The notes: generated by a model not told the origin, from the letters alone. A stretch of DNA of 64,000 nucleotides from Alphaproteobacteria bacterium (GCA_965216755.1 CBDCGL010000011.1:1408001-1472000); one strand, 5' to 3'. Positions 28,375-44,208 are shown, counted from the first letter of the stretch. Made by a program: numbers and translations.

Positions 28375-29178
28375 CTATCCGCAACTGGCGGATAGACCGC
28401 CATCGACAATGAGTTCGGTGGCCGTGACATAGCGCGCTTCATCTGAGGCAAGAAACAGCGATGCATGGGCGACATCCCAGGCGTCACCCATTTTTCCGGT
28501 TGGACACTGCGCGTCGCGCGCCGCCACCATCGCTGCCGCGTCACCGTCGCCATACTGTGTCGCAATGCGAGCCGTCACCAAAGGTGTGTTCATCAGGCCG
28601 GGCAACACACAATTTGCGCGCAGGCCCTGGCGGGCATATTGCAGCGCAACACCTCGCGTAAACTGAATGAGCCCGGCTTTGGCGGCCTGATAAGACGCCA
28701 TCGCCCGATCGCCCAGCGCGCGGATACCTGCAACCGACGATACGTTGACGATCACGCCACCGCCGTGATCCAAGATCACGGGTATCGCGTGCTTGCATGT
28801 GAGAAATGCTGACTTCAGGTTAAACGCAATTGCGCCGTCCCAGGCAGCTTCGCTTAGCTCCACCGGCCCGCCGGGAATTGACCCGCCAACATTATTTTGC
28901 AGGATATCTATCCGGCCGAATCGTGCCACGCACATTTGTACGGCCTTCGCAACGTCCGTCGAATTGGTGGCATCAGCCTGCCCAGCCGCGGCACTTCCGC
29001 CCTCGCCGCGAATCAAACTGACAGTCTCTCTTGCCGCCACTCCATCAATGTCTACGGCGAACACGTCGGCGCCCTCGCGAGCGAACAACATGGCTGTTGC
29101 TTTGCCGTTGCCCCAACCCGGCCCGACGGATCCCGCGCCCATGACAAAGGCAACCTTGTTCCGCAATCGACCCGCCAT
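28375..29178 (-). CDS. SDR family oxidoreductase
   Basis: GAGSVGPGWGNG, NNVG, YQAAK; GGAGG RBS. Confidence 0.92.
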   Translation of the reverse strand: MAGRLRNKVAFVMGAGSVGPGWGNGKATAMLFAREGADVFAVDIDGVAARETVSLIRGEGGSAAAGQADATNSTDVAKAVQMCVARFGRIDILQNNVGGSIPGGPVELSEAAWDGAIAFNLKSAFLTCKHAIPVILDHGGGVIVNVSSVAGIRALGDRAMASYQAAKAGLIQFTRGVALQYARQGLRANCVLPGLMNTPLVTARIATQYGDGDAAAMVAARDAQCPTGKMGDAWDVAHASLFLASDEARYVTATELIVDGGLSASCG

Positions 29179-29230
29179 CGCACACCTCCGTTATTTGATG
29201 CTAGACTGTTACGGTCAGCAACATTTGAGT

Positions 29231-29620
29231 ATGACCATGCAAGATGATCGCCGCATCCCGCATCACTCCGAGAACTATACGTGCGACGGGGAGAATGTCG
29301 CTGCAGAGACTGTCGACCGCATCGAAGGCGCACAGGCGAGCGCGCCGCTGCAAATTAAACCGCTCTTGACCGGCGACAACATGTTTCTAATGGAGATTAG
29401 ACGGTCAAAAGGTCTTGTTGATGCCACCCACGCGCACGCAGACCATGAATCAATGTGCTATTTGGTCAGCGGGCGCATGCGCGTTATCATCGATGGCAAC
29501 GAATTTGTCGCCAAGGCTGGCGACAGTTGGATACATCCTCCCGGCGTTGCCCATTACAGTGAAACGTTGGAAGACTCCGTGCAGGTTGAAGTCAAGTCGC
29601 CACCAAGACGGACATGGTGA
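29231..29620 (+). CDS. cupin domain protein
   Basis: HAHADHESMCYLVSG and GDSWIHPPGVAH cupin motifs 1 and 2. Confidence 0.82.
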   Translation: MTMQDDRRIPHHSENYTCDGENVAAETVDRIEGAQASAPLQIKPLLTGDNMFLMEIRRSKGLVDATHAHADHESMCYLVSGRMRVIIDGNEFVAKAGDSWIHPPGVAHYSETLEDSVQVEVKSPPRRTW

Positions 29621-29731
29621 CGGATGTAACAACAATCGATCACACGTTCGGTACATCGTGACCCGATGGACGGTTCCGCGATATGATGGCTGTCCCGTAG
29701 TTTGGGCCCAAAAAATGCGAGGGATGGCATC

Positions 29732-30211
29732 ATGATTAAAGGCCTGCATCACAACGCCTATCGCTGTCGCGACTCGGAGACCACGCGCCAGTTTTATGAG
29801 GATTTCTTGGGCATGCGTTTGGCCGGGAGTTTGAAGATCGACACGACGGTCACTGGTCGCCCCACGAACGTACTGCACACATTCTATGAGTTGGATGATG
29901 GTTCATATCTGGCCTTCTTTGAGGCCCCAGACATGCCATTTGAATTCAAGGATCAGCACGACTTCGACTTACATATCGCGCTTGAAGTGAGCCGTGATGA
30001 TCTCCAGTCGATGTTCGATAGAGGCAAGGCGGAAGGCCGCGAAATCCGCGGCGTGTCGAACCACGGATTCATACGTTCGATTTATTTCCGCGACCCGAAT
30101 GGTTATGTAATCGAACTGGCGGCCAAACAGGACGGTCAAGATCACGCCATGGACCCGCGACAAAACCGTGCGCGCGATATCCTTGACGACTGGCAAGCCA
30201 CCAAGGTCTAG
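29732..30211 (+). CDS. VOC family protein
   Basis: GLHHNAYRC, LHIAL, SIYFRDPNGYVIEL. Confidence 0.88.
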   Translation: MIKGLHHNAYRCRDSETTRQFYEDFLGMRLAGSLKIDTTVTGRPTNVLHTFYELDDGSYLAFFEAPDMPFEFKDQHDFDLHIALEVSRDDLQSMFDRGKAEGREIRGVSNHGFIRSIYFRDPNGYVIELAAKQDGQDHAMDPRQNRARDILDDWQATKV

Positions 30212-30233
30212 CGCACTTTCTGCGTAAATAAGG

Positions 30234-31019
30234 CTATTCGTGCGCGACCAGCCAATCGTGCGCCGCCCGTTGCGCTTCAGCGACTTGTTCCGTCGTCATC
30301 TCCGAAACCAAACGGTCCCGCCGACGCTGCGCCTGGCCGGCTTGTTGCCGCGTGAATTTGGCGTATGCGGCACGGTCGCCTTCTATTTGCGCGCAATCAG
30401 CCTCTTTCGCGTCTTGATCCGCTTGCGCGCTCTCTCGCTCATAGTTTCGATGGGCAATATCGTACCACATATATGCCATCACATAGTTGCGTGCCACACC
30501 TTTGCCTTCGCTCAAGACACGCGCGAGGTCACTCTGTGCCCAAACGAAATTCTGTTCGGCCGCGCGCTCGTACCATTCCGCCGCCTTGTCATCGGCCTGT
30601 GCGACGCCTTCACCTTGTTCATAAAGAACGCCCAGCGCCCGTTGCGCCGCAGGAAAATCTTGGTTGGCGGCCCGAAAATAGAGTTTTGCAGCTGTTCCAG
30701 CATCGCGCCCGACACCGATGCCGAGCGAATAAAGGCCGGCCAGCGCGTATAACGCTTCATCGTAGCCTTGCTTCGCAGCACGCTGATACCACTCGGCGGC
30801 GGCGATGAAGTCTTGGATATATTTGCCGCTTTGATAGATTTTGGCGATTTCGTGCTGCGCTGACGGATCCCCAGAATCGGCCAAGGGTCGTAGTTCGGCA
30901 AGAGCATCTTGATAGTTGCCACAAAGGACTGCGTGTTTGGCCTCGTCCAAGCCGGCATCGCTGGGCGCCGCGCCGATAATGACCAAAAGACCGGCCCCCG
31001 CTGTCGCCCGCCAGAACAT
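30234..31019 (-). CDS. exported Sel1-like repeat protein
   Basis: Signal peptide; repeated A-x-x-x-LG-x-LY-x-x-G-x-GV / WY-x-x-AA units; C-terminal MT-x-EQVAEAQ. Confidence 0.88.
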   Translation of the reverse strand: MFWRATAGAGLLVIIGAAPSDAGLDEAKHAVLCGNYQDALAELRPLADSGDPSAQHEIAKIYQSGKYIQDFIAAAEWYQRAAKQGYDEALYALAGLYSLGIGVGRDAGTAAKLYFRAANQDFPAAQRALGVLYEQGEGVAQADDKAAEWYERAAEQNFVWAQSDLARVLSEGKGVARNYVMAYMWYDIAHRNYERESAQADQDAKEADCAQIEGDRAAYAKFTRQQAGQAQRRRDRLVSEMTTEQVAEAQRAAHDWLVAHE

Positions 31020-31047
31020 TGCCACACTCTTCTCCCTAGCGTTGCTG

Positions 31048-31479
31048 CTATTTCTTGATTTCACCTGCCTCGTGCCGCTTGCGGTTTTCGTCACGCAGAT
31101 ACGCAATGATCTTCCAAATATCGTCACCTTCCATCGATCCACCAAAAGCCCCCATCTGGGTATTTGGAATCCCAGCGGCGATATTGTAAAAGACGCGTTC
31201 ATTGGAGCCACCGAACTTCCACTTGTCATCGGTCAGGTCCGGCCCCTTCGCGCCGCGACCACCGCCACCATGGCAGTAAACACAACGTGCCCCGAAGCGC
31301 TCTTTGCCGTGCGCGATCGCGTCGGTATCACCTTCAAATTCATTCACTACGTCGTCAACGACGTCATCCGCCGCCTGGGCGGATACCGGCCCAATCACGA
31401 CGAGAGTGAAAATCGCAAAGACTCCACCGATATAGCTCGAAATTGTGCGTTTCCTCGCCACGAAATCCGTCGTTTTCAT
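31048..31479 (-). CDS. periplasmic monohaem cytochrome c (XoxG/ExaB-type acceptor)
   Basis: Signal peptide, CVYCHG, GPDL, distal Met (TQMGAF); directly downstream of PQQ dehydrogenase and binding protein. Confidence 0.88.
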   Translation of the reverse strand: MKTTDFVARKRTISSYIGGVFAIFTLVVIGPVSAQAADDVVDDVVNEFEGDTDAIAHGKERFGARCVYCHGGGGRGAKGPDLTDDKWKFGGSNERVFYNIAAGIPNTQMGAFGGSMEGDDIWKIIAYLRDENRKRHEAGEIKK

Positions 31480-31517
31480 TGGTCTTTCTTTTACTCCAGA
31501 CTTTCTTTTACTTTGCG

Positions 31518-32360
31518 TCAGCTCTTATCTTGAAATGGAGGGTAGAACGGCATGCCGTAGCCCTCGACGATTTCCTCAATCCGGCCACTTTCCAGCATGC
31601 GCGCAATCGACTCATCGATAAACGCCTTCAAAGCGGTCTCCTTCGCGGGCACGGCCATGGCCAAATTCCACCGTAGACCGGGCAAAGGCGCGAAATCCTC
31701 AACCGTCCGAAACTGTGCATCAGGATGGTTCTTCAGCGCCTTCGCGATCGCCGCCGAATAAACCATCGCGGCGTCGACCTCGCCTTCCGCCATGCCGCGC
31801 ATGACACGGCGATTGCCGTTATACAACTCTCGATCGATCTCGTTATCGAACAGATACGCATCCATAGGTGTCGTCATCGCCACACCTACTTTGTGCTTGC
31901 CCCGAATCTCTTCAAGAGAGCGGGCATCACCGGCCGCACCTTGCACCACCAAAACATATCCCATCCCGAGATAAGGAGCTGAAAATACAAGGTTTTTCTC
32001 AGCAAGCTCGCGCACACCGTCGTCGTCGACGCCAATACCCATGAACAGATCACAGGAGCCTTTGGCAATTGAATTGCGGAGGGCTTTACCGAGGCCGCCA
32101 CGAGTGCCGGTATCCGTCCAGACATATTCGATGCCCATGCCCGCGTCCTTGGCGATTGCCTCGATGATCTCAATATCGAAACCGGGCGGAAACTCGCCCT
32201 GCGACGAATAAGGATAGATGTAGGGGTCGGCGCAAACCGTTAACAAGCCACGTCGTTTTGACTTCTCAAGGGCATCTTCCGCTAGTGCAGCGCCTGAAAC
32301 ACAAAACAGCGCCGCCGCGCCACATACCAAGCCAAGAGCGATTCCAAGGGCCCTGTTCAC
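31518..32360 (-). CDS. MxaJ/XoxJ-like periplasmic substrate-binding protein
   Basis: VCADP-x-x-x-PYS, PGFDIEI, C-D-L-F-M-G; position after PQQ dehydrogenase; GGAGG RBS before GTG. Confidence 0.85.
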   Translation of the reverse strand: MNRALGIALGLVCGAAALFCVSGAALAEDALEKSKRRGLLTVCADPYIYPYSSQGEFPPGFDIEIIEAIAKDAGMGIEYVWTDTGTRGGLGKALRNSIAKGSCDLFMGIGVDDDGVRELAEKNLVFSAPYLGMGYVLVVQGAAGDARSLEEIRGKHKVGVAMTTPMDAYLFDNEIDRELYNGNRRVMRGMAEGEVDAAMVYSAAIAKALKNHPDAQFRTVEDFAPLPGLRWNLAMAVPAKETALKAFIDESIARMLESGRIEEIVEGYGMPFYPPFQDKS

Positions 32361-32379
32361 CGAACATCCTCCAACTTAC

Positions 32380-32421
32380 AAAAAAGGGGAAGGCGGACCA
32401 TGCCGCCTCCCCCCGTTTTTT
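32380..32421 (-). terminator. intrinsic terminator / stabilising hairpin after the PQQ dehydrogenase gene
   Basis: Minus strand GGGGGAGGCGG-CATGGT-CCGCCTTCCCC-TTTTTT; also a T-run on the plus side. Confidence 0.8.
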
Positions 32422-32468
32422 GTCAACCGATCTCGTGGCCCTGGAACAGCCACGATACCGATTAAGGC

Positions 32469-34199
32469 CTATGGCAAACCAAAGGTGACGACAACGCCGC
32501 CCTTAGAGTGCTTCTTCAGCCATTCACCGTAGTAAAGCGGCCAAATGCCACCGCCACCGGCGCCAGCCACGAACGACACCATCTGTTCGCCGCCAGCGCT
32601 ATAAGAGGTTGGGTTGCCGTGGACGCCGGTACCGACGTTGAACTGCCAGAGTTCTTCACCGGTGTCATCGCGCACCGCGTGGACATAGCCTTCGGCATCA
32701 CCGTAGAAAACCACACCACCGGCCGTGGCGAGCGTGCCACTCACTGCGGGCGTGCTCATCGGACGGATCCAAGCCAAGCTGCCATCAGAGGCATTATGGG
32801 CACGGATGGCACCGTTGCCCTTGTTCCAGGTGATGACCTTAGCACCCAGATACCATTCGCCACGCTTCCACTCCATCTTCTTGGCCTGCAAGTCCATGGA
32901 GAAGTTGTAAGTCGGCACATAGACCATGCCTGTGCGCGGGCTGTACGCCATCGGATGCCACTCTTTACCACCGTCCAGCGAGGGCGCGATGTCCCGGGTT
33001 GGGGCATCGTAGCCGACATCCATTTCCGGCCAATTCATGATCGGGCGGCAATTGTCCTCAAAGCCTTTCGCCCAGTTGACGCGGCTGATCGGCACCACCC
33101 AATTGCACTCGAAGTTCTCACGGTTGATTGAATACAGATGACCATTGCGATCACCGTGCAACCAAACCTTCTGACCATCAACATCGGCCAGAATGACTTC
33201 GTTCACGCCGTCATAGTCATACGGGTCGTTTGGCGTGTATTGGAAGTGGCCTTTAATTGAACCGTCATCCGGATCCAGCACCAAGGTACTGTTCGAATAC
33301 AGGTTGTCGCCAAGACGAACGTGACGGTCAAAGTCCGGACCCGGATTGCCAACCGGCCAGTACAGCAGGTGCAGGTCCTTGTCGTACGAACCCGTGATCC
33401 ACGCCGAGCCGCCCCCATACTTCCAGGACTCGCCGGCCCACGTATCGTTGCCCGGCTCACCCGGCGCGGGGATCGTGTAGGTCTTCCAAACTTCGTCGCC
33501 GGTTTCCGCATCACGGGCGGTGATCCAGCCACGAACACCATATTCGGCACCGGCCGTGCCGACGATGATCTTGTCCTGAAGCGCCATCGGCATCACGGTG
33601 AAGGTCTCGGCATAAGTATAGTCGCCAACAGCGACGTCATATTCGACTTCGCCAGTGGCGTTGTTCAGCTTCACAAGATGTGCATCCAGCGATGCAAGAT
33701 AAACACTGTCCTTGTAAGGCGCGACGCCGCGGTTTACCACGTCACAGCACAATTCCGGATAGACGTCAGCCGGAAGTTCACGTTCATACTTCCAGTTCAC
33801 ATCACCGGTCGCGGTGTTCACCGACCAGACCTTGTTGTAAGACGACGTCACATAGCCGGTGCCGCCGACCACGACAACTTCACTATCCTGGCCATCAAGC
33901 GAGCCAAATGACAGAATCCATTTGGCTTGAAGATCACTAGCATTGTCTTGATTGATTTGCGTCTGTAGCGCGTAACGAGTCGATTGATAATCCTTGCCAT
34001 AGTGCATCCAATTCATTGGATCCACGTCAGCATTCATCAACATGTCGTCCGATACATAGTTCGGTTGCTGCGGAGCCGCCTCGAGAACGTCGACTCCCTG
34101 AGCCCATGCGGACACCGATCCAAGACTGACAGCGCCGGCTACCAACGCAGCAACGCCCAAAGCCGAACGGCTGCAGGTCGTAAGAGACCGGTCTTTCAT
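32469..34199 (-). CDS. PQQ-dependent dehydrogenase, methanol/ethanol family, with lanthanide-type motif
   Basis: Signal peptide, vicinal CCDVVNRG, GAEYGVRG, GNPGP, YDYDGVNE, DRNG, W-docking repeats. Confidence 0.92.
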   Translation of the reverse strand: MKDRSLTTCSRSALGVAALVAGAVSLGSVSAWAQGVDVLEAAPQQPNYVSDDMLMNADVDPMNWMHYGKDYQSTRYALQTQINQDNASDLQAKWILSFGSLDGQDSEVVVVGGTGYVTSSYNKVWSVNTATGDVNWKYERELPADVYPELCCDVVNRGVAPYKDSVYLASLDAHLVKLNNATGEVEYDVAVGDYTYAETFTVMPMALQDKIIVGTAGAEYGVRGWITARDAETGDEVWKTYTIPAPGEPGNDTWAGESWKYGGGSAWITGSYDKDLHLLYWPVGNPGPDFDRHVRLGDNLYSNSTLVLDPDDGSIKGHFQYTPNDPYDYDGVNEVILADVDGQKVWLHGDRNGHLYSINRENFECNWVVPISRVNWAKGFEDNCRPIMNWPEMDVGYDAPTRDIAPSLDGGKEWHPMAYSPRTGMVYVPTYNFSMDLQAKKMEWKRGEWYLGAKVITWNKGNGAIRAHNASDGSLAWIRPMSTPAVSGTLATAGGVVFYGDAEGYVHAVRDDTGEELWQFNVGTGVHGNPTSYSAGGEQMVSFVAGAGGGGIWPLYYGEWLKKHSKGGVVVTFGLP

Positions 34200-34677
34200 G
34201 ACACAGGTCCTCCCCAAATAGTGCACTTACTACTCACAATCTCGTGCCACAGGTCTTGCCATTTCACCACGCCGCCAGAACGGCCACAGTGTTATCGTCC
34301 GCGCAAGCCAACGGAAGCGAGTCCACGACGCATTCAAGACAATCCTAGTCTAGAATATCTGGTTCCTTGGATCGGACCCTGCGTTACGAGCGATGACAAC
34401 AACTCAGACGCGCGGCCAAGCATTTAGTCATGGCCGTCGCCATCCCTGTTTTTGAGCCACCTACGCACGTCGGAGACAGCTCTGATCATCGGCGCCCAAT
34501 GTAACGAAAGTCTGTATTAGTTCAACGCAAGATCGCGTCGAAACCGAAATTGGCTGAAATCAACCGACCACAAATCCGTACATTGGAAAAGGAACTCTAG
34601 ATCTGTCGCGGTCGGCGCGAGGTCTGCCCATGTCTTGGCCGAACAAAGACGAGCAAGGCTGTATTGCGGGCCGTATT

Positions 34678-36819
34678 TTATCCGGCGAATGCGGCCTGTC
34701 CCGACCGAGACCTCTCGCCACGCTTCCGATCAGCAACCAAGGGCGGACAGCGACTTGTGTCTAAATAGTCGACCTGGCAGTCCAAACATTGAAAGCACTC
34801 GTTCAAATTAATACGCCCGTTCGGGGCGATCGCCTGAACCGGACAGGATAGTTCGCAAATATGACACGCAGTCCCGCATTGAGGCCGCCGCCGAAGCCAG
34901 TCAAACACATGGAGCCGGCCGAAGACCGAAAGCGCCGCGCCCAGCGGGCAAATATATCGGCAGTAAAATCGTTCGAAAAAGAGCCCGACAAAGACAAGCA
35001 ATCCGGCATACACAACATACGGCCACGCGCGCACGAATTTGAGTGTGATCGCCGTCTTGAAGGGTTCAATTTCGGCCAGTGCCGTTGCCAGTTCGATCGA
35101 GAACGCCGCCGCGGCGAACAGCCCCGCCACGATCGCATACTTCACCATCCACATCCGCTCGTTGGCGGCAAATGATGGCGTGTATTGGGGCACCCCGGTC
35201 CAACGCGCCAACCGCGCGAGAAGTTCCTGCAACGCCCCAAACGGGCAAAGCCAGCCACAGAACACACCGCGCCCTAATAAAATAAGCGTAACAAGTGTGT
35301 AGCCGATGATAATAACCATGAGCGGCTCAAAAAGGAGAGCGGACCACCCTGCCCCTTTGAATAGTGCCAACACATATGCAAAGACATTGACCATCGCCAA
35401 CTGGGCGCCGGCGATCCATCCCAGCCACACCAACACGAAAAGCAAAAACGCGATTCGCACAATCGCGTGCAACTGTCGGTGACGTGATAATTGATTTTGG
35501 AACAAGAGGACGGCGGTCAATACGGATAGCAATGTGATCAAAATCAGAATTTCATAGTCTTGGGCCGCCCACACCTTTTGCCAGTCGCTTAGGGCGCTTT
35601 CTCGAAACAGCCCAAAGCCAACGAAGTTGGCCTCTTTCAGGCCCGCCTCCTCTAATGCCGTATCATCGCCAACAATATAACCCGCCGGCAGGCGATAAGA
35701 GGCATGGACGGATGGACGCTCTGATTGCGCGGCATTCGCGGCACCTGCCGACGCCGGCATCGGCGCATCCACAAGCAATTCGAAGCGCCACGGCTGCACC
35801 GGATCGAAACCGACATCGCGTGATAATCGCAGCAACGCCAATTCATTGAATTTCGGTCCGCCAGCAACGCGCAAGGCCGTCGGCGGCAGCGCCATGTCGG
35901 CGCGCAAAAGTATAACCCGGTCATCCTGGATGATGCGCACGCGATCAAAAACGCCGGTCGCTTTGTAATTGCTACCGCGCCAAGAATACCGGCCGCGTCC
36001 AGCCACCATCACCAAATGTTCGCCGAACTCCAGATTCGAGAGGTGATGATTGTGCCAGCGGCGCCCGAACAAATTGCGCCCGATACCGGCAGGCGTCGCG
36101 AGAGCAACCGCAACCTCGGATGCCGGACCGGTTCCGGCATCGCGATCCTCGCCATCCCATACCAAGAGCTGGACTGCTCCATTGTCCAGCAGAGTTTGCC
36201 AATCCGCGTCTTGAAAGAGTTCGAGATCAATGCTTAGCCCACCGGCGGCGCCGACGTCGTCTTTCAGCAAACCTTTGGCGCGCGCGACCTTGCGCGCAGA
36301 CAAGACGATAGCGCCGTGCATGAGGGTCGAGCTGATCGTTGCACCCGATACGCCATCGATCACACCGCGACCGCGCCGCCGCATGGGGCTATTGATGTCC
36401 AACCCTTCCAGACGCGACAAATAGCCTTGCATGGCAGCAACCGGAATAGTACCCGGGCCAAGCATCGGTTCGTATTGTTCCAGCAGAACGCTGCCGGCGA
36501 TGCGCCCCTCCGCATCCAAACCGACGATGATATCGAAGGGTTCGCCGGCATAGCCACGGCCATCGACAAGATCGTAAGTCGAGAATAGATAGCCAATCGG
36601 CGCGTCATCGCGGATGACCTGGGCGACGGCCGGATCGTCTTGCACGTCACCGATCCCATCATTCTCTGGGAACATCATCCGAGTCAGTCCCGGACTGATC
36701 CGGGACGGCAACGGGTCGTCCATGTCGGATCGCGCCGGCCCCAGAACGGCGAAAACCGCCATGGCCGCCGCCGTGATCAAAATCCGGGACCACAAACGCG
36801 GTCCGATAACCGACGACAT
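34678..36819 (-). CDS. NosR/NirI-like membrane protein with FMN-binding domain and 4Fe-4S ferredoxin domain
   Basis: Periplasmic DGVSGATISS flavinylation motif, TM bundle, CGWLCP, CRYICP, C-x3-C-x2-C-x3-CP, CFQCLDC. Confidence 0.88.
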   Translation of the reverse strand: MSSVIGPRLWSRILITAAAMAVFAVLGPARSDMDDPLPSRISPGLTRMMFPENDGIGDVQDDPAVAQVIRDDAPIGYLFSTYDLVDGRGYAGEPFDIIVGLDAEGRIAGSVLLEQYEPMLGPGTIPVAAMQGYLSRLEGLDINSPMRRRGRGVIDGVSGATISSTLMHGAIVLSARKVARAKGLLKDDVGAAGGLSIDLELFQDADWQTLLDNGAVQLLVWDGEDRDAGTGPASEVAVALATPAGIGRNLFGRRWHNHHLSNLEFGEHLVMVAGRGRYSWRGSNYKATGVFDRVRIIQDDRVILLRADMALPPTALRVAGGPKFNELALLRLSRDVGFDPVQPWRFELLVDAPMPASAGAANAAQSERPSVHASYRLPAGYIVGDDTALEEAGLKEANFVGFGLFRESALSDWQKVWAAQDYEILILITLLSVLTAVLLFQNQLSRHRQLHAIVRIAFLLFVLVWLGWIAGAQLAMVNVFAYVLALFKGAGWSALLFEPLMVIIIGYTLVTLILLGRGVFCGWLCPFGALQELLARLARWTGVPQYTPSFAANERMWMVKYAIVAGLFAAAAFSIELATALAEIEPFKTAITLKFVRAWPYVVYAGLLVFVGLFFERFYCRYICPLGAALSVFGRLHVFDWLRRRPQCGTACHICELSCPVQAIAPNGRINLNECFQCLDCQVDYLDTSRCPPLVADRKRGERSRSGQAAFAG

Positions 36820-36844
36820 GAAACGTCGACCCGAGCTGCGCGGG

Positions 36845-37645
36845 CTATCGTACGTTGACGAACGGCAGAGAAGCCGCGCCAAGCGTGTTGCCGGCAACAA
36901 ACATCGGCTGGTTTGGCGAAGTTGGCGATTGCGCCAAAGGTACACCGATTTCCCGAACGAGCTTTTCTAACATGGCCGCCGCGAAGTCTTCATAGTCTTC
37001 CGCGATCATCAGAAAAGCGCCCGTGCCACCGATCACGCTGTGCAGGTAGTAGCCGTCGACAAACGGCTCTTCATTGAGAATTGCCAAGCCGTTGACTGTA
37101 ACCCCGGCGGCAATAGCCTCATCCCGCATGCGCATCGGCTCGACGCCGGAATTCGCGCGGCCATCGCCTGATACATCGATGACTCTTCGCAGCCCCTCGA
37201 TGTCGTTGTCGTCGAGATGATCTAGTGCGGCACGCAAGGCCCCACCAATGGCCGTTTGGCCGCCGACGATGCGCCTTGGCGTCCGCTGCACCCGTTTGGC
37301 GAGCGCCGCGGCGGACTCCGCGTCGCGAATAATAGTCCAATCCACGGCCAGCGCCTGTTCGCCCTTGTCCGACCACTGAATAATGGAAACCGCGACGCCG
37401 CTGCCGCCGGCGGCATGGACAGCGTCGACCACATCCGGATGCCGCAGCGCTTCTGCAAGCCCCCGCATCTGTAGGGCATACTCATCCTCGCTGACGCTTG
37501 ATGAGACGTCGACAGCCAGCACGAGCTCCAAATCCACCCAGTCCTGCGCCAACGCTGCGGTCGGACCAGATATCCCCCACAGGCCAGCGACCAACACCGC
37601 AAACCCGCTATAGTGCGCCAAACTGCGCCCGATCGGCTTCATCAT
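36845..37645 (-). CDS. exported DUF1194 VWA-fold protein
   Basis: Signal peptide; LELVLAVDVSSS (MIDAS DxSxS), TAIG, RRVIDVSGDG, GVTVNGL. Confidence 0.85.
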   Translation of the reverse strand: MMKPIGRSLAHYSGFAVLVAGLWGISGPTAALAQDWVDLELVLAVDVSSSVSEDEYALQMRGLAEALRHPDVVDAVHAAGGSGVAVSIIQWSDKGEQALAVDWTIIRDAESAAALAKRVQRTPRRIVGGQTAIGGALRAALDHLDDNDIEGLRRVIDVSGDGRANSGVEPMRMRDEAIAAGVTVNGLAILNEEPFVDGYYLHSVIGGTGAFLMIAEDYEDFAAAMLEKLVREIGVPLAQSPTSPNQPMFVAGNTLGAASLPFVNVR

Positions 37646-37681
37646 GGCGTTATCAATGGCACAAGTGCCGCAAAAGACCAA

Positions 37682-39520
37682 TCAATTGATTGCCATTTCA
37701 TCGGCTGCAATCACCGCCAGAGCCCAGGCCGCGGCGAACCGAACCGCTGGGTCGGCGTCATCCAAAGCACGTGTCAAGTCGGCGACGGCGGGTGCGGCAC
37801 GCGCCCTCATATCTCGTAACGCGCCGGCCGCCGCTCGTCTCACATTCCGGTCTGGATCCCGAAGCGCCCGCTTCATCACCGCGATGTCGAACTTCGCTTT
37901 GACACCAAACTTGTCCAGTACCGCACTGCGCATGCGTGGCTCGCTCCGGGGACGATCATCCAAGGCCGCGACTACCGCCGGAACACCGATCTCAGGATCC
38001 GCACCGAGATGCTCAAGCGCCCACGCCGCCGCCCATGCGACGTCCGGTTCCAGATCATCCAGCGCCGACAACAGGGTCGGCACCGCACCGGGATGGCCAA
38101 TGCGTTCCAGCGCCACGACCGTCGCCAGTCGCACGTCAAAATCCGGATCCGCGATCCGGCCAACCACGCGCGGTAACGCTTCGCCAGCCGGTGGCCCGAT
38201 CAGGCCCAGGGTACTGATCGCCGCGCGCCGCGTTTCAGGATCGGGATCGGCGACTGCGGAAGAAAGCGCACCAAGAGCTGCGGCGGCATCCTGACCGATT
38301 TCCTCGAGGGCACGCACCGACATCCGGCGCGCTTCCGCGTCAACACCGGCGATGACCTGCGCCAATTCAGCGACCGCGATCTTGCCATATTTGGCCAGGG
38401 CATCCGCCGCCGCCAAACGCACGGTACTCTCATTATCGACGAGGGCCTCCACGAGCCGGGGCATCACCAAATCGGCCGACCCGGCAATGTTCCCCAGCGC
38501 CACGGTCGCCAAGCGGCGCAAATCCTTGTTTGGATTGTCGGTTATGTCCAATAAAGGTAAGACCGCAGCACCGGCGGCCGGGCCAACCGCGCCCAGCGCA
38601 CGGACGGCGGCGACACGTACATCGTCATCCGGATCCAACAATGTCTCGATCAGAGCGGGGACGACTATTCTTTCGATCGCTGCCCGATGTGCGTTAGCCG
38701 CTGCGGAGCGTTGCGCCGCATCCTTGCCTTTCGGGAATTCCGGCGGTGCGCCGATAGCCTGGCCGACATCGTCCATCCAGGCACTCTGTTCGACGATACG
38801 CCCAAGGGCGCCCGCCGCGGCACGACGAACCCGGCGGTCCTTGTCCGCAAGCGCGGCAACAAGCGGTTCCAGTGCGGCACGGGCTTCGCCCCCAATCCCT
38901 GTCAGGGCGCGTGCCGCAGTGTACCGGGTTTGCGGGTCTGGATTCCGCAAAGCTTCAATAAGATACGGCACAGCCGGCGATCGCATATTGGCCAAGGCCC
39001 CGGCGGCCGCCGACCGAACGGATAGGTCGGGATCTGCCAACGCACCAACGAGGTGCGGGATCGATGCGAGCGCGCGCGTGCCGATAACGCTTAAAGCACC
39101 CGCCGCGGCTCGCCGAACTTGCGGTTCGGCATCGGACAGGGCATCGATCAACGCTGGGTTGGTGTGATTGAGCTGCGCGCCAATGCGCTCCAATGCGATG
39201 ATGGCCGCGACGCGGACGTCGATCGCGGGATCTCGCGTCAAAACCACCAGATCAGGCACCAGGTGACGGGCCTCACCGACATCTAGGGCCCCGATCGCGC
39301 GCGCGGCGATGGCGCGTCTGCCAGGGTCGGGCGCGGACAGCGCAGCTCGCAGATTGTCGGTTGGATTGACGGCCCCAGCCTCGATCGCGGCGGTACTCAG
39401 CCACAGAAACCAAATCAGAACCAGAATACCGTTCCGATGTGTCCGGCGGCTCACTTCGCGCCACGCGTCACAAAAAGAATCGCCACCGGTGGCCGCGCGC
39501 GGACTCGCTTTGTTCGGCAT
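37682..39520 (-). CDS. HEAT/PBS-lyase repeat protein with N-terminal hydrophobic (signal or TM) segment
   Basis: Roughly 14-15 tandem L-x-x-AL-x-D-x-D-x-x-VR-x-AAA-x-AL repeats; ILVLIWFLWLSTAAIEA segment. Confidence 0.85.
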   Translation of the reverse strand: MPNKASPRAATGGDSFCDAWREVSRRTHRNGILVLIWFLWLSTAAIEAGAVNPTDNLRAALSAPDPGRRAIAARAIGALDVGEARHLVPDLVVLTRDPAIDVRVAAIIALERIGAQLNHTNPALIDALSDAEPQVRRAAAGALSVIGTRALASIPHLVGALADPDLSVRSAAAGALANMRSPAVPYLIEALRNPDPQTRYTAARALTGIGGEARAALEPLVAALADKDRRVRRAAAGALGRIVEQSAWMDDVGQAIGAPPEFPKGKDAAQRSAAANAHRAAIERIVVPALIETLLDPDDDVRVAAVRALGAVGPAAGAAVLPLLDITDNPNKDLRRLATVALGNIAGSADLVMPRLVEALVDNESTVRLAAADALAKYGKIAVAELAQVIAGVDAEARRMSVRALEEIGQDAAAALGALSSAVADPDPETRRAAISTLGLIGPPAGEALPRVVGRIADPDFDVRLATVVALERIGHPGAVPTLLSALDDLEPDVAWAAAWALEHLGADPEIGVPAVVAALDDRPRSEPRMRSAVLDKFGVKAKFDIAVMKRALRDPDRNVRRAAAGALRDMRARAAPAVADLTRALDDADPAVRFAAAWALAVIAADEMAIN

Positions 39521-39621
39521 AAGGTCAATTATGCCGTAACTCTCCGTGACCTGTCAGTTGGCCTGTCTGGTAAAACCTGGTGCGACCGGCGAACCGCGCG
39601 CCGTCGGGGGCTATGGCGTGA

Positions 39622-40395
39622 CTAGGCCGGCAGGAACCATGAGGAACCGCGCGCCTTCTTTTTCCCTTTTCGATCGTCCGCCGCCTGGCCGGTCGCGCGC
39701 GCCTCGTCTTCTTCATTCATGGCGGCGAGACGTTGATTCATCGCGGCGAGCATTGCTTCGGCTTCTTTTTCCGGAGACTCCGCGTCATCATCGTCGTCGG
39801 CTTCAGACGGCGCGTCGAGCGCGTCAGAACCGGAAACTATCTCGGCGACCTCTGGATCGGTCGCAGATTCGTCCAAATCATGCTCGATCGCGGTTTCTTC
39901 CGCCACCAGTTCGGTCGTCGGGCTATCCGTGTCAGCAGCCTCGGCCTCCCCGGCGCTGGTCGTGCTACGCGCCTCGCTCTGCTCGATCGCGGCAGGTATG
40001 ATGCCAGAATTCGCCGACTCACCCGGCGACTCGGAGACCAAGGCGAATAGACGTTGCTCAATCGTGGTCTCGTTGCCGCCGCCCACTTCCGGTTCGCCGC
40101 GCTCGACGGTATTCAGCAAAGTACTCAGCATAGTCCGCAGGGTTTCATTTTCCTGCCGCAAGACCTCGTTGGTGTCGCGAAAATGCTCGTTTTCTTCGCG
40201 TATGGCCGACACTTGAGCCTCACGTTGCGCGACTTCGTCGCGCTTTTCTTGCTGACGTTTCTCGACAAGTTCGACCAGGTCCGCGAGACCTTTGCCGTAA
40301 TTCTTGCGCTGCTCGTCGATCTGCCCGAATCGTTGCTCGGCAGCCCGAACGCGCTTTTGCAGTTCGTCAATATCAGCGATGACGCGACCGTCCAT
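39622..40395 (-). CDS. hypothetical protein, N-terminal coiled coil and acidic disordered C-terminus
   Basis: Heptad-rich N-terminal half; D/E/A/S-rich C-terminal half; RBS-like GGGAG upstream. Confidence 0.6.
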   Translation of the reverse strand: MDGRVIADIDELQKRVRAAEQRFGQIDEQRKNYGKGLADLVELVEKRQQEKRDEVAQREAQVSAIREENEHFRDTNEVLRQENETLRTMLSTLLNTVERGEPEVGGGNETTIEQRLFALVSESPGESANSGIIPAAIEQSEARSTTSAGEAEAADTDSPTTELVAEETAIEHDLDESATDPEVAEIVSGSDALDAPSEADDDDDAESPEKEAEAMLAAMNQRLAAMNEEDEARATGQAADDRKGKKKARGSSWFLPA

Positions 40396-40861
40396 TTTCC
40401 CGTTAGCTCCCAACGCCTTACGCCTCAACGCATGTGCATTGCCGGGGCAGTAACCGCCAAGGCTTGGCATATCCCCGTATGTCTACAGATCACAGGCCCA
40501 ATCAGGCCGAAATCAGCATGCCCGACCTGCCAGCACGCGGATGCGATCGCGGTCACAACGGTACCTTTTGCCACAGTTATGGCGGATTATTGCTGTCAAA
40601 CAAAGGTTTGGCACGTCGGCCCGGTCACACCGACGTATTGTGCGTCACATCCATTGTCACCGATTGCGCATGACGAAGTTCAATGTCGATTGCGGCAGTG
40701 CAATAAAGCGTCTTGCCCAAAGTTGTAAGACATCAATCAGGCATGCAGCTGTCACAACCTTTGAAACAAAAGTAAATCACGCACCGTATTGTTTGCTTCT
40801 GTCATCCCCCCCATATCCAAAAGGTGCGTTGGCATCTTTATCAAACTTTCGGGTCGTAACA

Positions 40862-42796
40862 ATGGACGTCTTCGATCTCTTCTCATCGATTTACAGCCAG
40901 GAGAAGCAGGAAGAACTCACGCTGAAGGACTATCTGCTTGCCTGCCGCGAAGATCCGATGATGTACGCCACGGCGGCGGAACGGATGATTGCCGCAATCG
41001 GAGAGGCGGAAGTTATCGATACCAGTCCGGACCCAAGATTGGGCCGAATCTTCCTCAACCGGACCATCAAACGGTACCCGGCATTTCACGATTTTTATGG
41101 CATGGAAGACACAATCGAGCGGATTGTGGGCTATTTCCAGTACGCTGCACAGGGCCTAGAAGAGCGTAAACAGATTCTTTACTTACTGGGTCCCGTCGGC
41201 GGCGGCAAATCGTCTTTGGCCGAACGCCTCAAGCAATTGATGGAAATTCATCCGGTGTATGTCCTGAAGGCCGGAGACCAGATCAGCCCGGTGTTCGAGT
41301 CACCCCTGGGCTTGTTCAACCCGGACCGCATGGCCGATTTGCTTGAGGAAAAATATGGCATTGCCCGGCGCCGCCTGACCGGATTGATGTCGCCATGGGC
41401 GATCAAGCGCCTCGATGAATTCGGCGGCGATATCTCCAAGTTTACGGTCGTCAAACTGCAACCGTCGAAATTGCGACAGGTCTGTATCGCAAAAACCGAG
41501 CCCGGTGATGAGAACAATCAGGATATCTCAGCGTTGGTCGGCAAGATCGACATTCGCAAGTTGGAACATTTCAGCCAAAACGATCCGGACGCCTATAGCT
41601 TCTCTGGCGGTCTGAATCGAACCAGCCAGGGCCTGCTGGAATTCGTCGAAATGTTCAAGGCACCGATCAAGGTCTTGCATCCCCTGCTCACGGCAACGCA
41701 GGAGGGCAACTATCTGGGTACCGAAAGCTTCGGCGCCTTCCCCTATCAAGGTATCGTCTTGGCGCATTCCAACGAAGCGGAATGGCAGCAGTTCAAGAAC
41801 AATCGTAACAACGAGGCGTTTCTTGACCGCATCTGCGTAATCAAGGTTCCCTACTGCCTACGAGTTACCGAAGAATCGCAGATTTACGAGAAACTGTTGC
41901 ACAATAGCGAGTTGGGCGACTCCCAGTGTTCACCCGGTGTGCTCGATTTGTTGGCGCGCTTTTGTGTTCTCACCCGTTTGCGTGAGCACGAGAATTCGAC
42001 GCTCTATTCGAAAATGCGCGTCTATGACGGCGAGAACCTAAAAGACACGGATCCCAAAGCGAAGTCGATGCAGGAATACCGCGACGCCGCTGGTGTCGAC
42101 GAAGCAATGACCGGTGTCAGTACGCGCTTCGCTTTCAAAGTGCTGTCTGAGACCTTTAACTATGACATCAACGAAGTCGCCGCGGATCCGGTGCATCTGA
42201 TGTATGTGCTGGAGCAGGCGGTCAAGCGCGAGCAGTTCCCCGAGGAAACGGAGAACCGCTATCTTGATTTCCTGAAATCGGAGTTGAGCCCACGATATGC
42301 CGAGTTCATCGGCCACGAAATACAGAAAGCCTACCTGGAATCATACTCCGAATACGGTCAAAATCTGTTCGACCGCTACATCGCCTATGCCGACGCGTGG
42401 ATCGAGGAACAGGACTACAAAGATCCCGACACGGGTCAAATCTTCGACCGGCAGGTCCTCGACGCTGAGCTGTCGAAAATCGAAAAACCGGCCGGCATCG
42501 CAAATCCAAAGGATTTCCGTAACGAAGTCGTCAAGTTCGCCTTGCGTGCCCGGGCCAACCACAAAGGCAAGAACCCGCACTGGACAAGCTACGAAAAGAT
42601 GAAGGACGTCATCGAAAAACGCATGTTCAGCCAGGTTGAAGACCTCTTGCCCGTAATCAGTTTCGGCACGAAGAAAGATAGCCAAACCGATAAGCAGCAT
42701 ACCGAATTTGTCAGCCGGATGACGGGGCGCGGCTACACCGAACGCCAAGTCCGCCGGCTTGTCGAATGGTACATGCGCGTGAATAAGGCCGGGTAG
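40862..42796 (+). CDS. prkA: PrkA/YeaG family AAA+ serine protein kinase
   Basis: FYGMED, GPVGGGKSS Walker A, EFVEMFKAP, HSNE, GYTERQVRRL. Confidence 0.95.
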   Translation: MDVFDLFSSIYSQEKQEELTLKDYLLACREDPMMYATAAERMIAAIGEAEVIDTSPDPRLGRIFLNRTIKRYPAFHDFYGMEDTIERIVGYFQYAAQGLEERKQILYLLGPVGGGKSSLAERLKQLMEIHPVYVLKAGDQISPVFESPLGLFNPDRMADLLEEKYGIARRRLTGLMSPWAIKRLDEFGGDISKFTVVKLQPSKLRQVCIAKTEPGDENNQDISALVGKIDIRKLEHFSQNDPDAYSFSGGLNRTSQGLLEFVEMFKAPIKVLHPLLTATQEGNYLGTESFGAFPYQGIVLAHSNEAEWQQFKNNRNNEAFLDRICVIKVPYCLRVTEESQIYEKLLHNSELGDSQCSPGVLDLLARFCVLTRLREHENSTLYSKMRVYDGENLKDTDPKAKSMQEYRDAAGVDEAMTGVSTRFAFKVLSETFNYDINEVAADPVHLMYVLEQAVKREQFPEETENRYLDFLKSELSPRYAEFIGHEIQKAYLESYSEYGQNLFDRYIAYADAWIEEQDYKDPDTGQIFDRQVLDAELSKIEKPAGIANPKDFRNEVVKFALRARANHKGKNPHWTSYEKMKDVIEKRMFSQVEDLLPVISFGTKKDSQTDKQHTEFVSRMTGRGYTERQVRRLVEWYMRVNKAG

Positions 42797-42823
42797 TGCC
42801 CGCCTCGCCGCGGAGACACTGAG

Positions 42824-44137
42824 ATGTCCCATTTCATAGATCGACGGCTGAACCCCAAAGACAAGAGCCTAGGAAATCGCCAGCGATTCATGCGGCGGGC
42901 GCACGCCCAAATCAAGGAAGTGGTCAATCGGTCGGTCAAAGGCCGCAACGTTTCCAATATTGATACCGGCGAAACAATCAAAATCCCGACCAAGGGCATA
43001 GGCGAACCGCGCTTCCACAATGCGCCCACCGGCGGCTATCGACAACGCGTCTTTACCGGCAATCGCGAATTCGTCACCGGCGACACCCTGCCAAAACCGC
43101 CCGAGTCCGGCGGCAATGGCGGTGGCAAGGAAGGCAGCGACCAGGGCGAAGGTGAAGATGCCTTTGAATTTGCCCTCACGCGCGATGAGTTCCTCGACAT
43201 CTTCTTCGAAGACTTGTCTTTGCCCGACCTTGTCAAGACCAGCCTAAGAGAAGTCACGACCTACAAAATGCGCCGCGCCGGATTTACGGTGACCGGCACA
43301 ACCGCGAATATCAACGTGTTGCGCACCATGCGGAACAGTTACGGGCGTCGGCTTGCATTGCGCCGGCCAAATCCGGACGACATCGCCGAGCTCCAGGAAA
43401 AGATCATCCAACTTGAGGCCGTCGAATCACCCACCGAGACGCAAGCGCGTACGCTTTCCGCGCTTCGCGAAGAGCTCGAACGGCTCGAACGGAAATGGCG
43501 CACTGTGCCTTTCATCGATCCGCTCGACATTCGCTACAACAATCTGCAGCCGTTTCCCGAGCCCAACACCAACGCCGTCATGTTTTGCTTGATGGACGTG
43601 TCTGGCTCGATGGGCGAACGTGAAAAGGATCTCGCGAAACGTTTCTTTATGCTGCTGCACCTCTTTTTGCAGCGCCGCTACGAACGAATTGACATCGTCT
43701 TTATTCGCCACACGCACGAAGCGCAAGAAGTCGACGAAGAGACATTTTTCTACAGCCGGGAAACCGGCGGCACCGTCGTCAGTACGGCCTTGGTCGAGAT
43801 GCTGAAGATCGTGCGCGCGCGCTATCCCACCAACGAATGGAACATTTACGCGGCCCAGGCTTCTGACGGCGACAACTATTCGGGTGACGGCCAGCGCTGT
43901 ACGTCGCTGCTGGGGCAAGAAATCATGCCCCTTTGCCAATATTATGCCTATGTCGAGATTTTGGACGAGCGTGAACTTGAGATATTCCGGGGCTCCCACA
44001 ATGGCGCCGCGCTATGGCGGGCTTACCGCCCCGTCGTGGACGATTGGGCGAACTTCGCCATGAAACGGATTGCGCGCCCAAGCGACATTTATCCGGTGTT
44101 CCGCGAGCTGTTCGCGCGAGACAGGGAGAAGAGCTAA
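42824..44137 (+). CDS. yeaH: YeaH/YhbH family protein
   Basis: IDRRLNPKDKS, FCLMDVSGSM, GGTVVS, QASDGDN; follows prkA. Confidence 0.93.
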   Translation: MSHFIDRRLNPKDKSLGNRQRFMRRAHAQIKEVVNRSVKGRNVSNIDTGETIKIPTKGIGEPRFHNAPTGGYRQRVFTGNREFVTGDTLPKPPESGGNGGGKEGSDQGEGEDAFEFALTRDEFLDIFFEDLSLPDLVKTSLREVTTYKMRRAGFTVTGTTANINVLRTMRNSYGRRLALRRPNPDDIAELQEKIIQLEAVESPTETQARTLSALREELERLERKWRTVPFIDPLDIRYNNLQPFPEPNTNAVMFCLMDVSGSMGEREKDLAKRFFMLLHLFLQRRYERIDIVFIRHTHEAQEVDEETFFYSRETGGTVVSTALVEMLKIVRARYPTNEWNIYAAQASDGDNYSGDGQRCTSLLGQEIMPLCQYYAYVEILDERELEIFRGSHNGAALWRAYRPVVDDWANFAMKRIARPSDIYPVFRELFARDREKS

Positions 44138-44208
44138 ACCGAAATCGGATTTCCTTCCAGACATAGGCCGATCACTAAAACAACGCATGATGGAACGCAG
44201 GGCTTAGC

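Follow-up and report, generated by a model that had tools for sequence, protein, structure and literature searches.

The closest described relatives of the system reported here are the xoxFGJ, mxaFJGI and pedH/exaA gene clusters, which are centered on dehydrogenases with the cofactor pyrroloquinoline quinone (PQQ). In a 64,000-nucleotide stretch of an alphaproteobacterial genome (GCA_965216755.1, CBDCGL010000011.1:1408001-1472000), called the window below, frame reading and scoring against Pfam and NCBIfam profiles revealed seven open reading frames (ORFs), all on the minus strand at positions 30234-39520, that resemble these clusters in encoding an eight-bladed PQQ dehydrogenase with vicinal cysteines and a DYD motif, then a MoxJ-like protein and a c-type cytochrome. 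Unlike in those clusters, the window's enzyme appears to belong to a separate clade, the MoxJ-like protein and the cytochrome stay under the cut-offs of the curated MoxJ, MoxG and PedF models, and the cluster adds genes for a HEAT-repeat protein, a DUF1194 protein and a NosR-like protein, which we did not find described for the known clusters. We conclude that the cluster is a genuine, conserved and uncharacterised variant of the xox/exa-type quinoprotein cluster.

We know of no account of how lanthanides are inserted into PQQ dehydrogenases. For the calcium enzymes, passages of PMC12276312 describe a need for a seven-gene helper set; MxaJ is required to insert PQQ, and MxaRSACKL to load calcium. 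On the electron-transfer side, main text passages of Méheust et al. (2021, PMC8238504) report, from bioinformatic analysis, 172 genomes in which flavinylated NapH-like proteins cluster with alcohol oxidases of the ExaA type, propose an electron route for them, and describe NapH-like modules as serving both reductases and oxidases. The window cluster is alike in placing a membrane protein with a flavin mononucleotide (FMN) domain and a PF12801 part beside an ExaA-type dehydrogenase, with ApbE encoded in the genome; whereas those passages propose the flavoprotein in place of a cytochrome, the window cluster encodes both. Partners of the HEAT, VWA or DUF1194 type receive no mention in the main text passages of that paper, its gene-cluster table aside, and we found no literature linking HEAT or DUF1194 to a PQQ enzyme, a 2026 preprint on lanthanide PQQ enzymes being among the texts searched. 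An earlier reading of this DNA, made from the sequence only, had called the whole combination undescribed. That claim has to give up its NosR-like part, since the NapH-like/ExaA clusters reported in passages of PMC8238504 put this link in print as a prediction; the remainder, a HEAT/DUF1194 pair with a PQQ enzyme, appears undescribed in the literature searched.

The seven co-oriented genes, with the domains and gaps that the sequence-only reading had given them, were all found where it had placed them. Counted from the likely ATG codons, HEAT and DUF1194 are separated by 36 bp, DUF1194 and NosR-like by 25 bp, and NosR-like and the dehydrogenase by 478 bp; the dehydrogenase start at 34199 is preceded by the ribosome site GGGGAGGA. 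A hydrophobic, signal-like N-terminal segment is visible on all seven products; the calls of export made here are judgments of these segments by eye.

At 525.7 bits over model positions 5-530, the dehydrogenase lies above the TIGR03075 cut-off of 480.05 and is thus a member of this family. Its nearest solved structures are the lanthanide enzyme PedH (6zcw; E 6e-97, 329 bits) and then XoxF (4mae; 3.6e-87, 297 bits). In an alignment of 20 orthologues, compared residue by residue with PedH 6zcw, residues C160-C161, E228, W276, N294, D337-Y338-D339 and R360 are invariant, as is a second cysteine pair, C374 and C393. The extra aspartate two residues past the catalytic one is described as the mark of lanthanide-type PQQ enzymes in part of a preprint (bioRxiv 2020.02.25.964783). 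The full set of PQQ and metal residues is present, including DYD, which supports the lanthanide-type enzyme proposed by the earlier reading; by its signature the dehydrogenase would be of this type. As judged from sequence, it appears to form a clade distinct from PedH and XoxF, at a similar distance from both. This clade is highly conserved, with a mean column identity of 82% among the 20 orthologues, identities of 62-81% between orthologues and of 62-100% across 25 loci. The window's genome (G000, contig C11) holds about 12 PQQ alcohol dehydrogenase paralogues, 8 of them above the TIGR03075 cut-off, together with pqqC.

The two gene products that follow the dehydrogenase both fall short of curated models. 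The MoxJ-like protein, which has no paralogue in the window's genome, scores 77.1 bits on TIGR03871 (cut-off 212.15) and 40.5 on TIGR03870 (258.1); it probably works like MoxJ, although not a member by score, because it belongs to the SBP_bac_3 fold family and its gene follows the dehydrogenase in all 25 loci. The cytochrome c reaches 46.6 bits on TIGR03872, the model for MoxG (cytochrome cL), against a cut-off of 147.8, and 21.3 on TIGR04494, that for cytochrome c550 PedF, against 122. As a side observation, two other PQQ dehydrogenase paralogues of the same genome have an adjacent cytochrome c of their own.

The grouping of these genes is beyond chance, because it recurs in other genomes with three different gene orders. 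We searched from both sides, with DUF1194 in 40 relatives, with a dehydrogenase pattern in contigs, in a 400-genome sample of the class, and with a DUF1194 scan of metagenomes. Genes for a MoxJ-like protein and a cytochrome c follow the dehydrogenase in 25/25 orthologue loci, and 24 of these loci, all but L123, also contain both DUF1194 and HEAT. A NosR-like gene is present in 17 of the 25 loci; seven of the other eight have less than 500 bp of sequence on that side, and it is thus adjacent in 17 of the 18 loci readable there. Counted per genome, 17 of the 20 that are readable have DUF1194 close to the dehydrogenase unit, and the exceptions G005, G017 and G300 keep it elsewhere in the genome. 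The sequence-only reading had staked itself on linkage being conserved, and linkage is what we found: carriers, which are marine Alphaproteobacteria, span at least four families, a G+C content of 32-74% and three gene orders, with flanking genes that differ between lineages.

The first order (HEAT>DUF1194>NosR>PQQDH>MoxJ>cyt c) is that of the window and of genus g6, where G011 is arranged as in the window and G014 and G019 likewise, with HEAT 8.8 and 2.1 kb away. The second is convergent (NosR>PQQDH>MoxJ>cyt c> <DUF1194<HEAT) and is found in metagenome-assembled genomes (MAGs) of low G+C content and in families f120 and f182. All eight close relatives recovered by the dehydrogenase-side contig scan have it (75-77% identity, G+C content 32-34%), and the four of them that were searched whole have genomes of 1.6-1.8 Mb. 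The sample of 400 genomes added four with an orthologue, in the two further families f120 and f182 (G+C content 64-67%); a NosR-like gene is adjacent in 4/4 and the convergent order holds in 3/4, the fourth being G300, whose sole DUF1194 match (G300:C1:2780543-2781187) lies 1.5 Mb from the dehydrogenase cluster, is flagged for one in-frame TGA and may be a decaying copy. The third order (HEAT> <Sel1 DUF1194> <cyt c<MoxJ<PQQDH) is that of genus g8, where the dehydrogenase, MoxJ-like and cytochrome c genes are convergent with DUF1194, HEAT is nearby and Sel1 lies between HEAT and DUF1194 on the other strand (L007, L012). In G005 and G017 (L003, L004), HEAT, DUF1194 and NosR-like form a tight operon, and the 80%-identical dehydrogenase is more than 2 Mb away. 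The earlier view of the two halves as one system is supported by their linkage across lineages, but not by G005, G017 and G300, where they are at least 1.5 Mb apart. The DUF1194 alignment retrieved 80 metagenome loci, 11 of the linked kind; some duplicate MAG loci, with identical rows L012/L047, L025/L043 and L049/L050.

Presence and absence follow the same pattern. Every orthologue genome checked for DUF1194 has one, and all of those placed in the tree are of the linked type. Within family f1 (23 genomes), 10 carry a dehydrogenase orthologue and 9 of the 9 examined have linked-type DUF1194 (G015 left out), versus none of the 7 examined genomes that lack the orthologue, all of which carry other types. 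The lineages number about six and are related, and kin are not independent; the counts therefore overstate independence, and the three gene orders with differing flanks are the stronger argument.

The DUF1194 protein, encoded by a single gene of this family in the window's genome, scores 237 bits on PF06707 against a cut-off of 27, which places it in the family. Its metal-ion-dependent adhesion site (MIDAS; D58, S60, S62, T143 and D173) is invariant in 17 orthologues, and in a first tree the 17 linked copies form a clade with a support of 96/99. In a larger tree of 109 rows, the 26 linked rows need one label change, versus a mean of 23.5 after shuffling; the linked branch itself is weakly supported there, and a sulfur-linked group falls among its sub-clades. 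Residue Q142, beside the MIDAS threonine, is found in 26/26 linked copies and in 0/83 others; E205 and F207, too, are largely confined to the linked copies. The PQQ dehydrogenase gene set thus has a DUF1194 subfamily of its own tied to it. A predicted model (predicted local distance difference test, 70) has the standard VWA/integrin I-domain fold, with integrin I-domains and collagen-binding VWA domains as the closest folds and NorD at rank 11; our search found no solved structure of the DUF1194 or NosR family. Prediction of a complex between residues 58-585 of the dehydrogenase and 46-255 of DUF1194 gave a score of 0.00 (mark 0.32), which is evidence neither way.

In marine Rhodobacterales, according to parts of PMC12282271, DUF1194 proteins adjoin outer-membrane proteins of type 11 secretion; their function is stated there to be unknown. 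The window's protein is like these in Pfam family, MIDAS and export, theirs being mostly by Sec; it is unlike them in subfamily, and in those parts the context is a DUF560 outer-membrane protein, glyoxalase and ThyX, with no PQQ enzyme mentioned. Other members of the family have contexts of their own. A sister group in family f1 (L008 in G001, L010 in G002, L013 in G013 and L015 in G012) belongs to a conserved sulfur-oxidation run, with flavocytochrome-c sulfide dehydrogenase, in most loci an FGE-sulfatase-like gene, and then DUF1194; SoxY adjoins. This suggests that DUF1194 proteins serve several periplasmic redox systems. In a further clade of 22 rows (the L055-L075 group), DUF1194 comes directly behind the housekeeping run hom-glpX-recJ on all three of the metagenome contigs that were scanned, namely L058, L062 and L071, and several other loci of this group have ORF sizes similar to those contigs. 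These two groups are the nearest to the linked one.

The HEAT protein shares only its repeat type with the E/F-type phycobilin lyases CpcE/CpcF and NblB, and it stays under the cut-off of every E/F-lyase NCBIfam model (NblB, 89 bits versus 300; CpcF, 61 versus 220; CpcE, 59 versus 330). Its orthologues in related loci align from end to end, begin with signal-like segments and have in common a central loop outside the repeats, in which one proline is almost invariant; their alignment contains no conserved His or Cys metal motif. An 11-bp overlap joins the end of HEAT to the start of DUF1194 in the low-GC MAG loci, and in L004 the DUF1194 and NosR-like genes overlap by 4 bp. Translational coupling of HEAT and DUF1194 is frequent, and the two most likely act as a pair. 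The Sel1 gene, which the sequence-only reading had counted among the members, is not core: it recurs in only two lineages, that of the window and genus g8 (L007, L012 and L047, between HEAT and DUF1194), was not found in g6, low-GC MAG, f120 or f182 loci, and is better described as a lineage-specific accessory.

The NosR-like protein is predicted to consist of a periplasmic FMN-binding domain, a NapH-like membrane part and cytoplasmic cysteine clusters. It is like NosR and NirI of denitrifiers in domain architecture and unlike them in lying beside neither nosZ nor nirS, in falling into another tree clade, and in scoring 574.7 bits on NF046105 (aligned over 22-680 of 680 positions), below the cut-off of 1000 for NosR; the genome encodes a separate NosR and NirI. 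Fer4_5 scores 60 bits and FMN_bind 21.4, slightly below its Pfam cut-off of 22. An SGAT motif is present at residue 200 and CX3CP at 563, 662 and 697. Among 13 cluster-linked NosR-like proteins, 12 have the flavinylation motif [S/T]GA[S/T], as defined in passages of PMC8238504, and all have two membrane CX3CP motifs. The window's genome has one ApbE gene (C11:3702535-3703362), beside one of the NosR-like paralogues. With a PF12801 protein, an FMN domain, the motif and a genomic ApbE, the protein has every element of a NapH-like flavinylated system as those passages define it. The tree groups the window's copy with the low-GC MAG cluster copies (98/96), apart from the genome's own NosR and NirI.

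This protein has many relatives in the genome, as 12 NosR/NapH-like paralogues are found in its 5.0 Mb (G000, C11; loci L031-L040) and 4-8 in relatives. One adjoins nosZ-nosD and scores 836 bits on NF046105, and one adjoins nirS; these are therefore taken as the genome's true NosR and NirI. Another two are found close to a different PQQ-type gene, and the remainder are without a clear partner. At L033 (G000:C11:2960000-2979999), two NosR-like genes, both without [S/T]GA[S/T], are less than 10 kb from a divergent PQQ propeller gene that scores 373 bits on TIGR03075, under the cut-off, with several Pfam-less ORFs between the genes.

The gene set has been kept together through rearrangements, and we are highly confident that it forms a functional module. 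Going by its sequences, it probably constitutes, albeit with considerable room for doubt, a single conserved module for periplasmic oxidation, with a distinct clade of lanthanide-type PQQ dehydrogenases at its center. The dehydrogenase would oxidise some alcohol or aldehyde by means of a lanthanide ion and of PQQ, which the MoxJ-like protein would load by analogy with MxaJ, and the c-type cytochrome would accept electrons from the dehydrogenase. A connection between this periplasmic enzyme and the electron pool of the membrane would be made by the NosR-like protein through its NapH-like membrane part, its cytoplasmic iron-sulfur clusters and a periplasmic FMN domain flavinylated by ApbE; we consider the chances that the NosR-like protein is such an electron link to be evenly balanced. 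As for the HEAT/DUF1194 pair, our preferred reading is that of an ATP-independent holding or assembly factor, which would grip the dehydrogenase or its metal via the MIDAS and aid loading of the metal site or docking at the NosR-like protein. A part for the pair in metal or cofactor loading is tentative and less likely than not. Its fullest version, in which HEAT/DUF1194 would hand a lanthanide to, or hold open, a dedicated PQQ dehydrogenase as the counterpart of MxaRSACKL, with the NosR-like protein wiring the enzyme to the quinone pool, is rather unlikely.

Several observations weigh against the proposed module and the roles given to its parts. Known VWA systems for metal insertion work with AAA+ ATPases, and the periplasm is without ATP. 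The cluster is like MxaRSACKL and the VWA/MoxR pairs (NorQD) in genetically tying a VWA/MIDAS protein to a metalloenzyme, calcium loading needing MxaC and MxaL according to passages of PMC12276312, and unlike them in having no AAA+/MoxR gene in or beside it. No AAA+ (MoxR) partner is found among the seven genes or in the related loci scanned, and the flanking genes scanned give only the AAA domain of PrkA (40541-42796), which belongs to an unrelated set. Both the missing ATPase and the missing ATP point away from MoxR-style insertion, and, DUF1194 being predicted as exported, the process would have to be ATP-independent. The MIDAS is invariant throughout the DUF1194 family, linked or not; therefore, nothing marks the site as lanthanide-specific. 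With 12 NosR-like paralogues, mostly partnerless, finding a member of this family next to another gene says little by itself. The tree of NosR-like proteins joins the cluster copies of g6 to other paralogues of the window's genome rather than to the window's copy; the NosR-like member may have been swapped, or composition may have distorted the tree, and because many rows deviate in composition we treat this placement as unsettled. In g8, the one locus with readable sequence on the relevant side, L007, has no NosR-like neighbor. Since HEAT-DUF1194-NosR-like stands away from the dehydrogenase in both G005 and G017, as DUF1194 does in G300, co-transcription is not required. Finally, the lineages are few, and the whole cluster may be passed on by transfer.

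The likeliest alternative turns the electron flow around. HEAT, DUF1194 and NosR-like would be a redox maintenance or activation unit, in which the NosR-like protein, in line with a proposal for NosR and nitrous-oxide reductase, would send electrons outward and keep the dehydrogenase or a partner redox-active. PQQ or the Cys160-Cys161 disulfide could be what is maintained, and HEAT and DUF1194 would be docking adaptors instead of metal loaders. The self-standing operons of G005 and G017 fit such a unit, as do the invariance of the vicinal cysteines and of the pair C374/C393, the membership of the protein in the superfamily of NosR and NirI, which adjoin nosZ and nirS in the same genome, and the service of NapH-like modules to reductases as well as oxidases described in passages of PMC8238504. 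However, the cluster already encodes a cytochrome c, the usual electron acceptor, and g8 lacks an adjacent NosR-like gene. Moreover, we know of no PQQ dehydrogenase that needs reductive activation, no search having been aimed at this. We regard a redox unit as improbable.

HEAT solenoids and MIDAS/VWA domains are classical modules of protein-protein interaction. HEAT/DUF1194 could accordingly be a structural tether, or a scaffold capturing substrates or partners, that holds the dehydrogenase, cytochrome and NosR-like protein together in a membrane-associated supercomplex, with no part in cofactor insertion. The integrin I-domains and collagen-binding VWA domains nearest to the DUF1194 fold, the HEAT alignment without a His/Cys metal motif, and the shuffling of gene order among all partners are in keeping with this. 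However, DUF1194 relatives occur in contexts as different as sulfur-oxidation genes and the position behind hom-glpX-recJ, so a generic role is possible, and a scaffold of this kind seems to us quite unlikely. A juxtaposition of two unrelated operons, with HEAT/DUF1194/NosR-like serving another process and adjoining the dehydrogenase through inherited synteny, could appeal to the 478-bp spacer and its promoter-like site between the halves, to their separation in G005, G017 and G300 and to the many orphan NosR-like paralogues, but it is already disfavoured and very improbable, as the linkage survives three gene orders, differing flanks, the whole G+C range and at least four families, and as all orthologue genomes checked carry DUF1194, of the linked type in every one placed in a tree, whereas 7/7 examined relatives without the orthologue have only other types.

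In HEAT and DUF1194, the cluster offers two predicted exported, strictly co-inherited candidates for helping a lanthanide enzyme, and DUF1194 bears a MIDAS. Were they indeed to load the metal, they would be the long-sought lanthanide counterpart of the MxaRSACKL calcium-insertion machinery, and their role would be the first functional anchor for the DUF1194 family. The cluster is also a conserved example from nature in which a quinoprotein is paired with a flavinylated protein of the NapH/NosR-like kind, an electron route so far only predicted. Because this enzyme clade is kept in small, low-GC marine genomes (1.6-1.8 Mb), it suggests an important oceanic substrate; the sulfite-oxidase-like neighbor present in many loci is a hint of sulfonated alcohols. 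Several carriers, among them the g6 genomes, G145 and G300, appear as single-contig genomes, and cultured strains may therefore exist.

Table 1. Genes and noncoding features of the cluster, with positions counted from the first letter of the window
Feature	Position	Strand	Evidence
HEAT-repeat protein (PBS-lyase-type), predicted exported, 612 aa	37682-39520	-	HEAT_2 224 bits, HEAT 181 bits
DUF1194/VWA protein with complete MIDAS, predicted exported	ORF 36845-37681, probable ATG 37645	-	PF06707 237 bits and VWA
NosR-like membrane flavo-iron-sulfur protein	ORF 34678-36945, probable ATG start 36819	-	Fer4_5, FMN_bind, NF046105 575 bits
Noncoding spacer, 478 bp, ahead of PQQ dehydrogenase gene	34200-34677	-	ORF scan of coding strand
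PQQ dehydrogenase, methanol/ethanol family, predicted periplasmic	ORF 32469-34226, probable ATG start 34199	-	TIGR03075 526 bits
Terminator-like hairpin, strong, between PQQ dehydrogenase and MoxJ-like genes	32385-32414	-	Stem of 12 pairs, 9 G-C, then T run
MoxJ/XoxJ-like binding protein, predicted periplasmic	31518-32360	-	SBP_bac_3 42 bits
c-type cytochrome, mono-haem	31048-31479	-	Cytochrome_CBB3 51 bits; single CVYCH at residue 66
Sel1-repeat protein, predicted exported	ORF 30234-31229, probable start 31019	-	Sel1 83 bits

Besides the genes, we considered the noncoding DNA. The spacer ahead of the dehydrogenase has no ORF of at least 60 aa on the coding strand, and an Rfam scan of positions 29000-41000 gave no match except a chance-level internal ribosome entry site, with none in the spacer. 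It probably holds the dehydrogenase's own promoter: one promoter-like site is found at 34702-34675, in a scan whose 4 sites overall are not above the 5.0 expected by chance, and g6 loci also show a sizeable spacer ahead of the dehydrogenase. Terminator-like sites number 26 versus 12.4 expected, and the sole strong one is the hairpin after the dehydrogenase gene, read from 32414 to 32385.

Two neighbors were considered as cluster members and rejected. An ORF upstream of HEAT (39622-40470) encodes an acidic coiled-coil protein without a signal peptide or Pfam match and is not conserved in related loci. A glyoxalase-family gene (29702-30211, plus strand), convergent with the Sel1 gene, came into consideration since DUF1194 co-occurs with glyoxalase in parts of PMC12282271; it has no counterpart in related loci at 1e-8, and its place in the window is therefore taken as coincidence. 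Directly upstream of the cluster, on the opposite strand, is a trio of PrkA, DUF444 (YeaH-like) and SpoVR genes (40541-45744, plus).

Loci with the convergent arrangement (L023-L028, L046, L048 and L121-L123), including those of most of the low-GC relatives, have two more genes directly upstream of NosR-like, one for a sulfite-oxidase-family molybdoenzyme and one for a cytochrome c::NapH-like fusion of about 590-680 aa, so that a second periplasmic enzyme is found with a NapH-type membrane partner of its own. An orthologue of this molybdoenzyme is encoded elsewhere in the window's genome, at C11:4034752.

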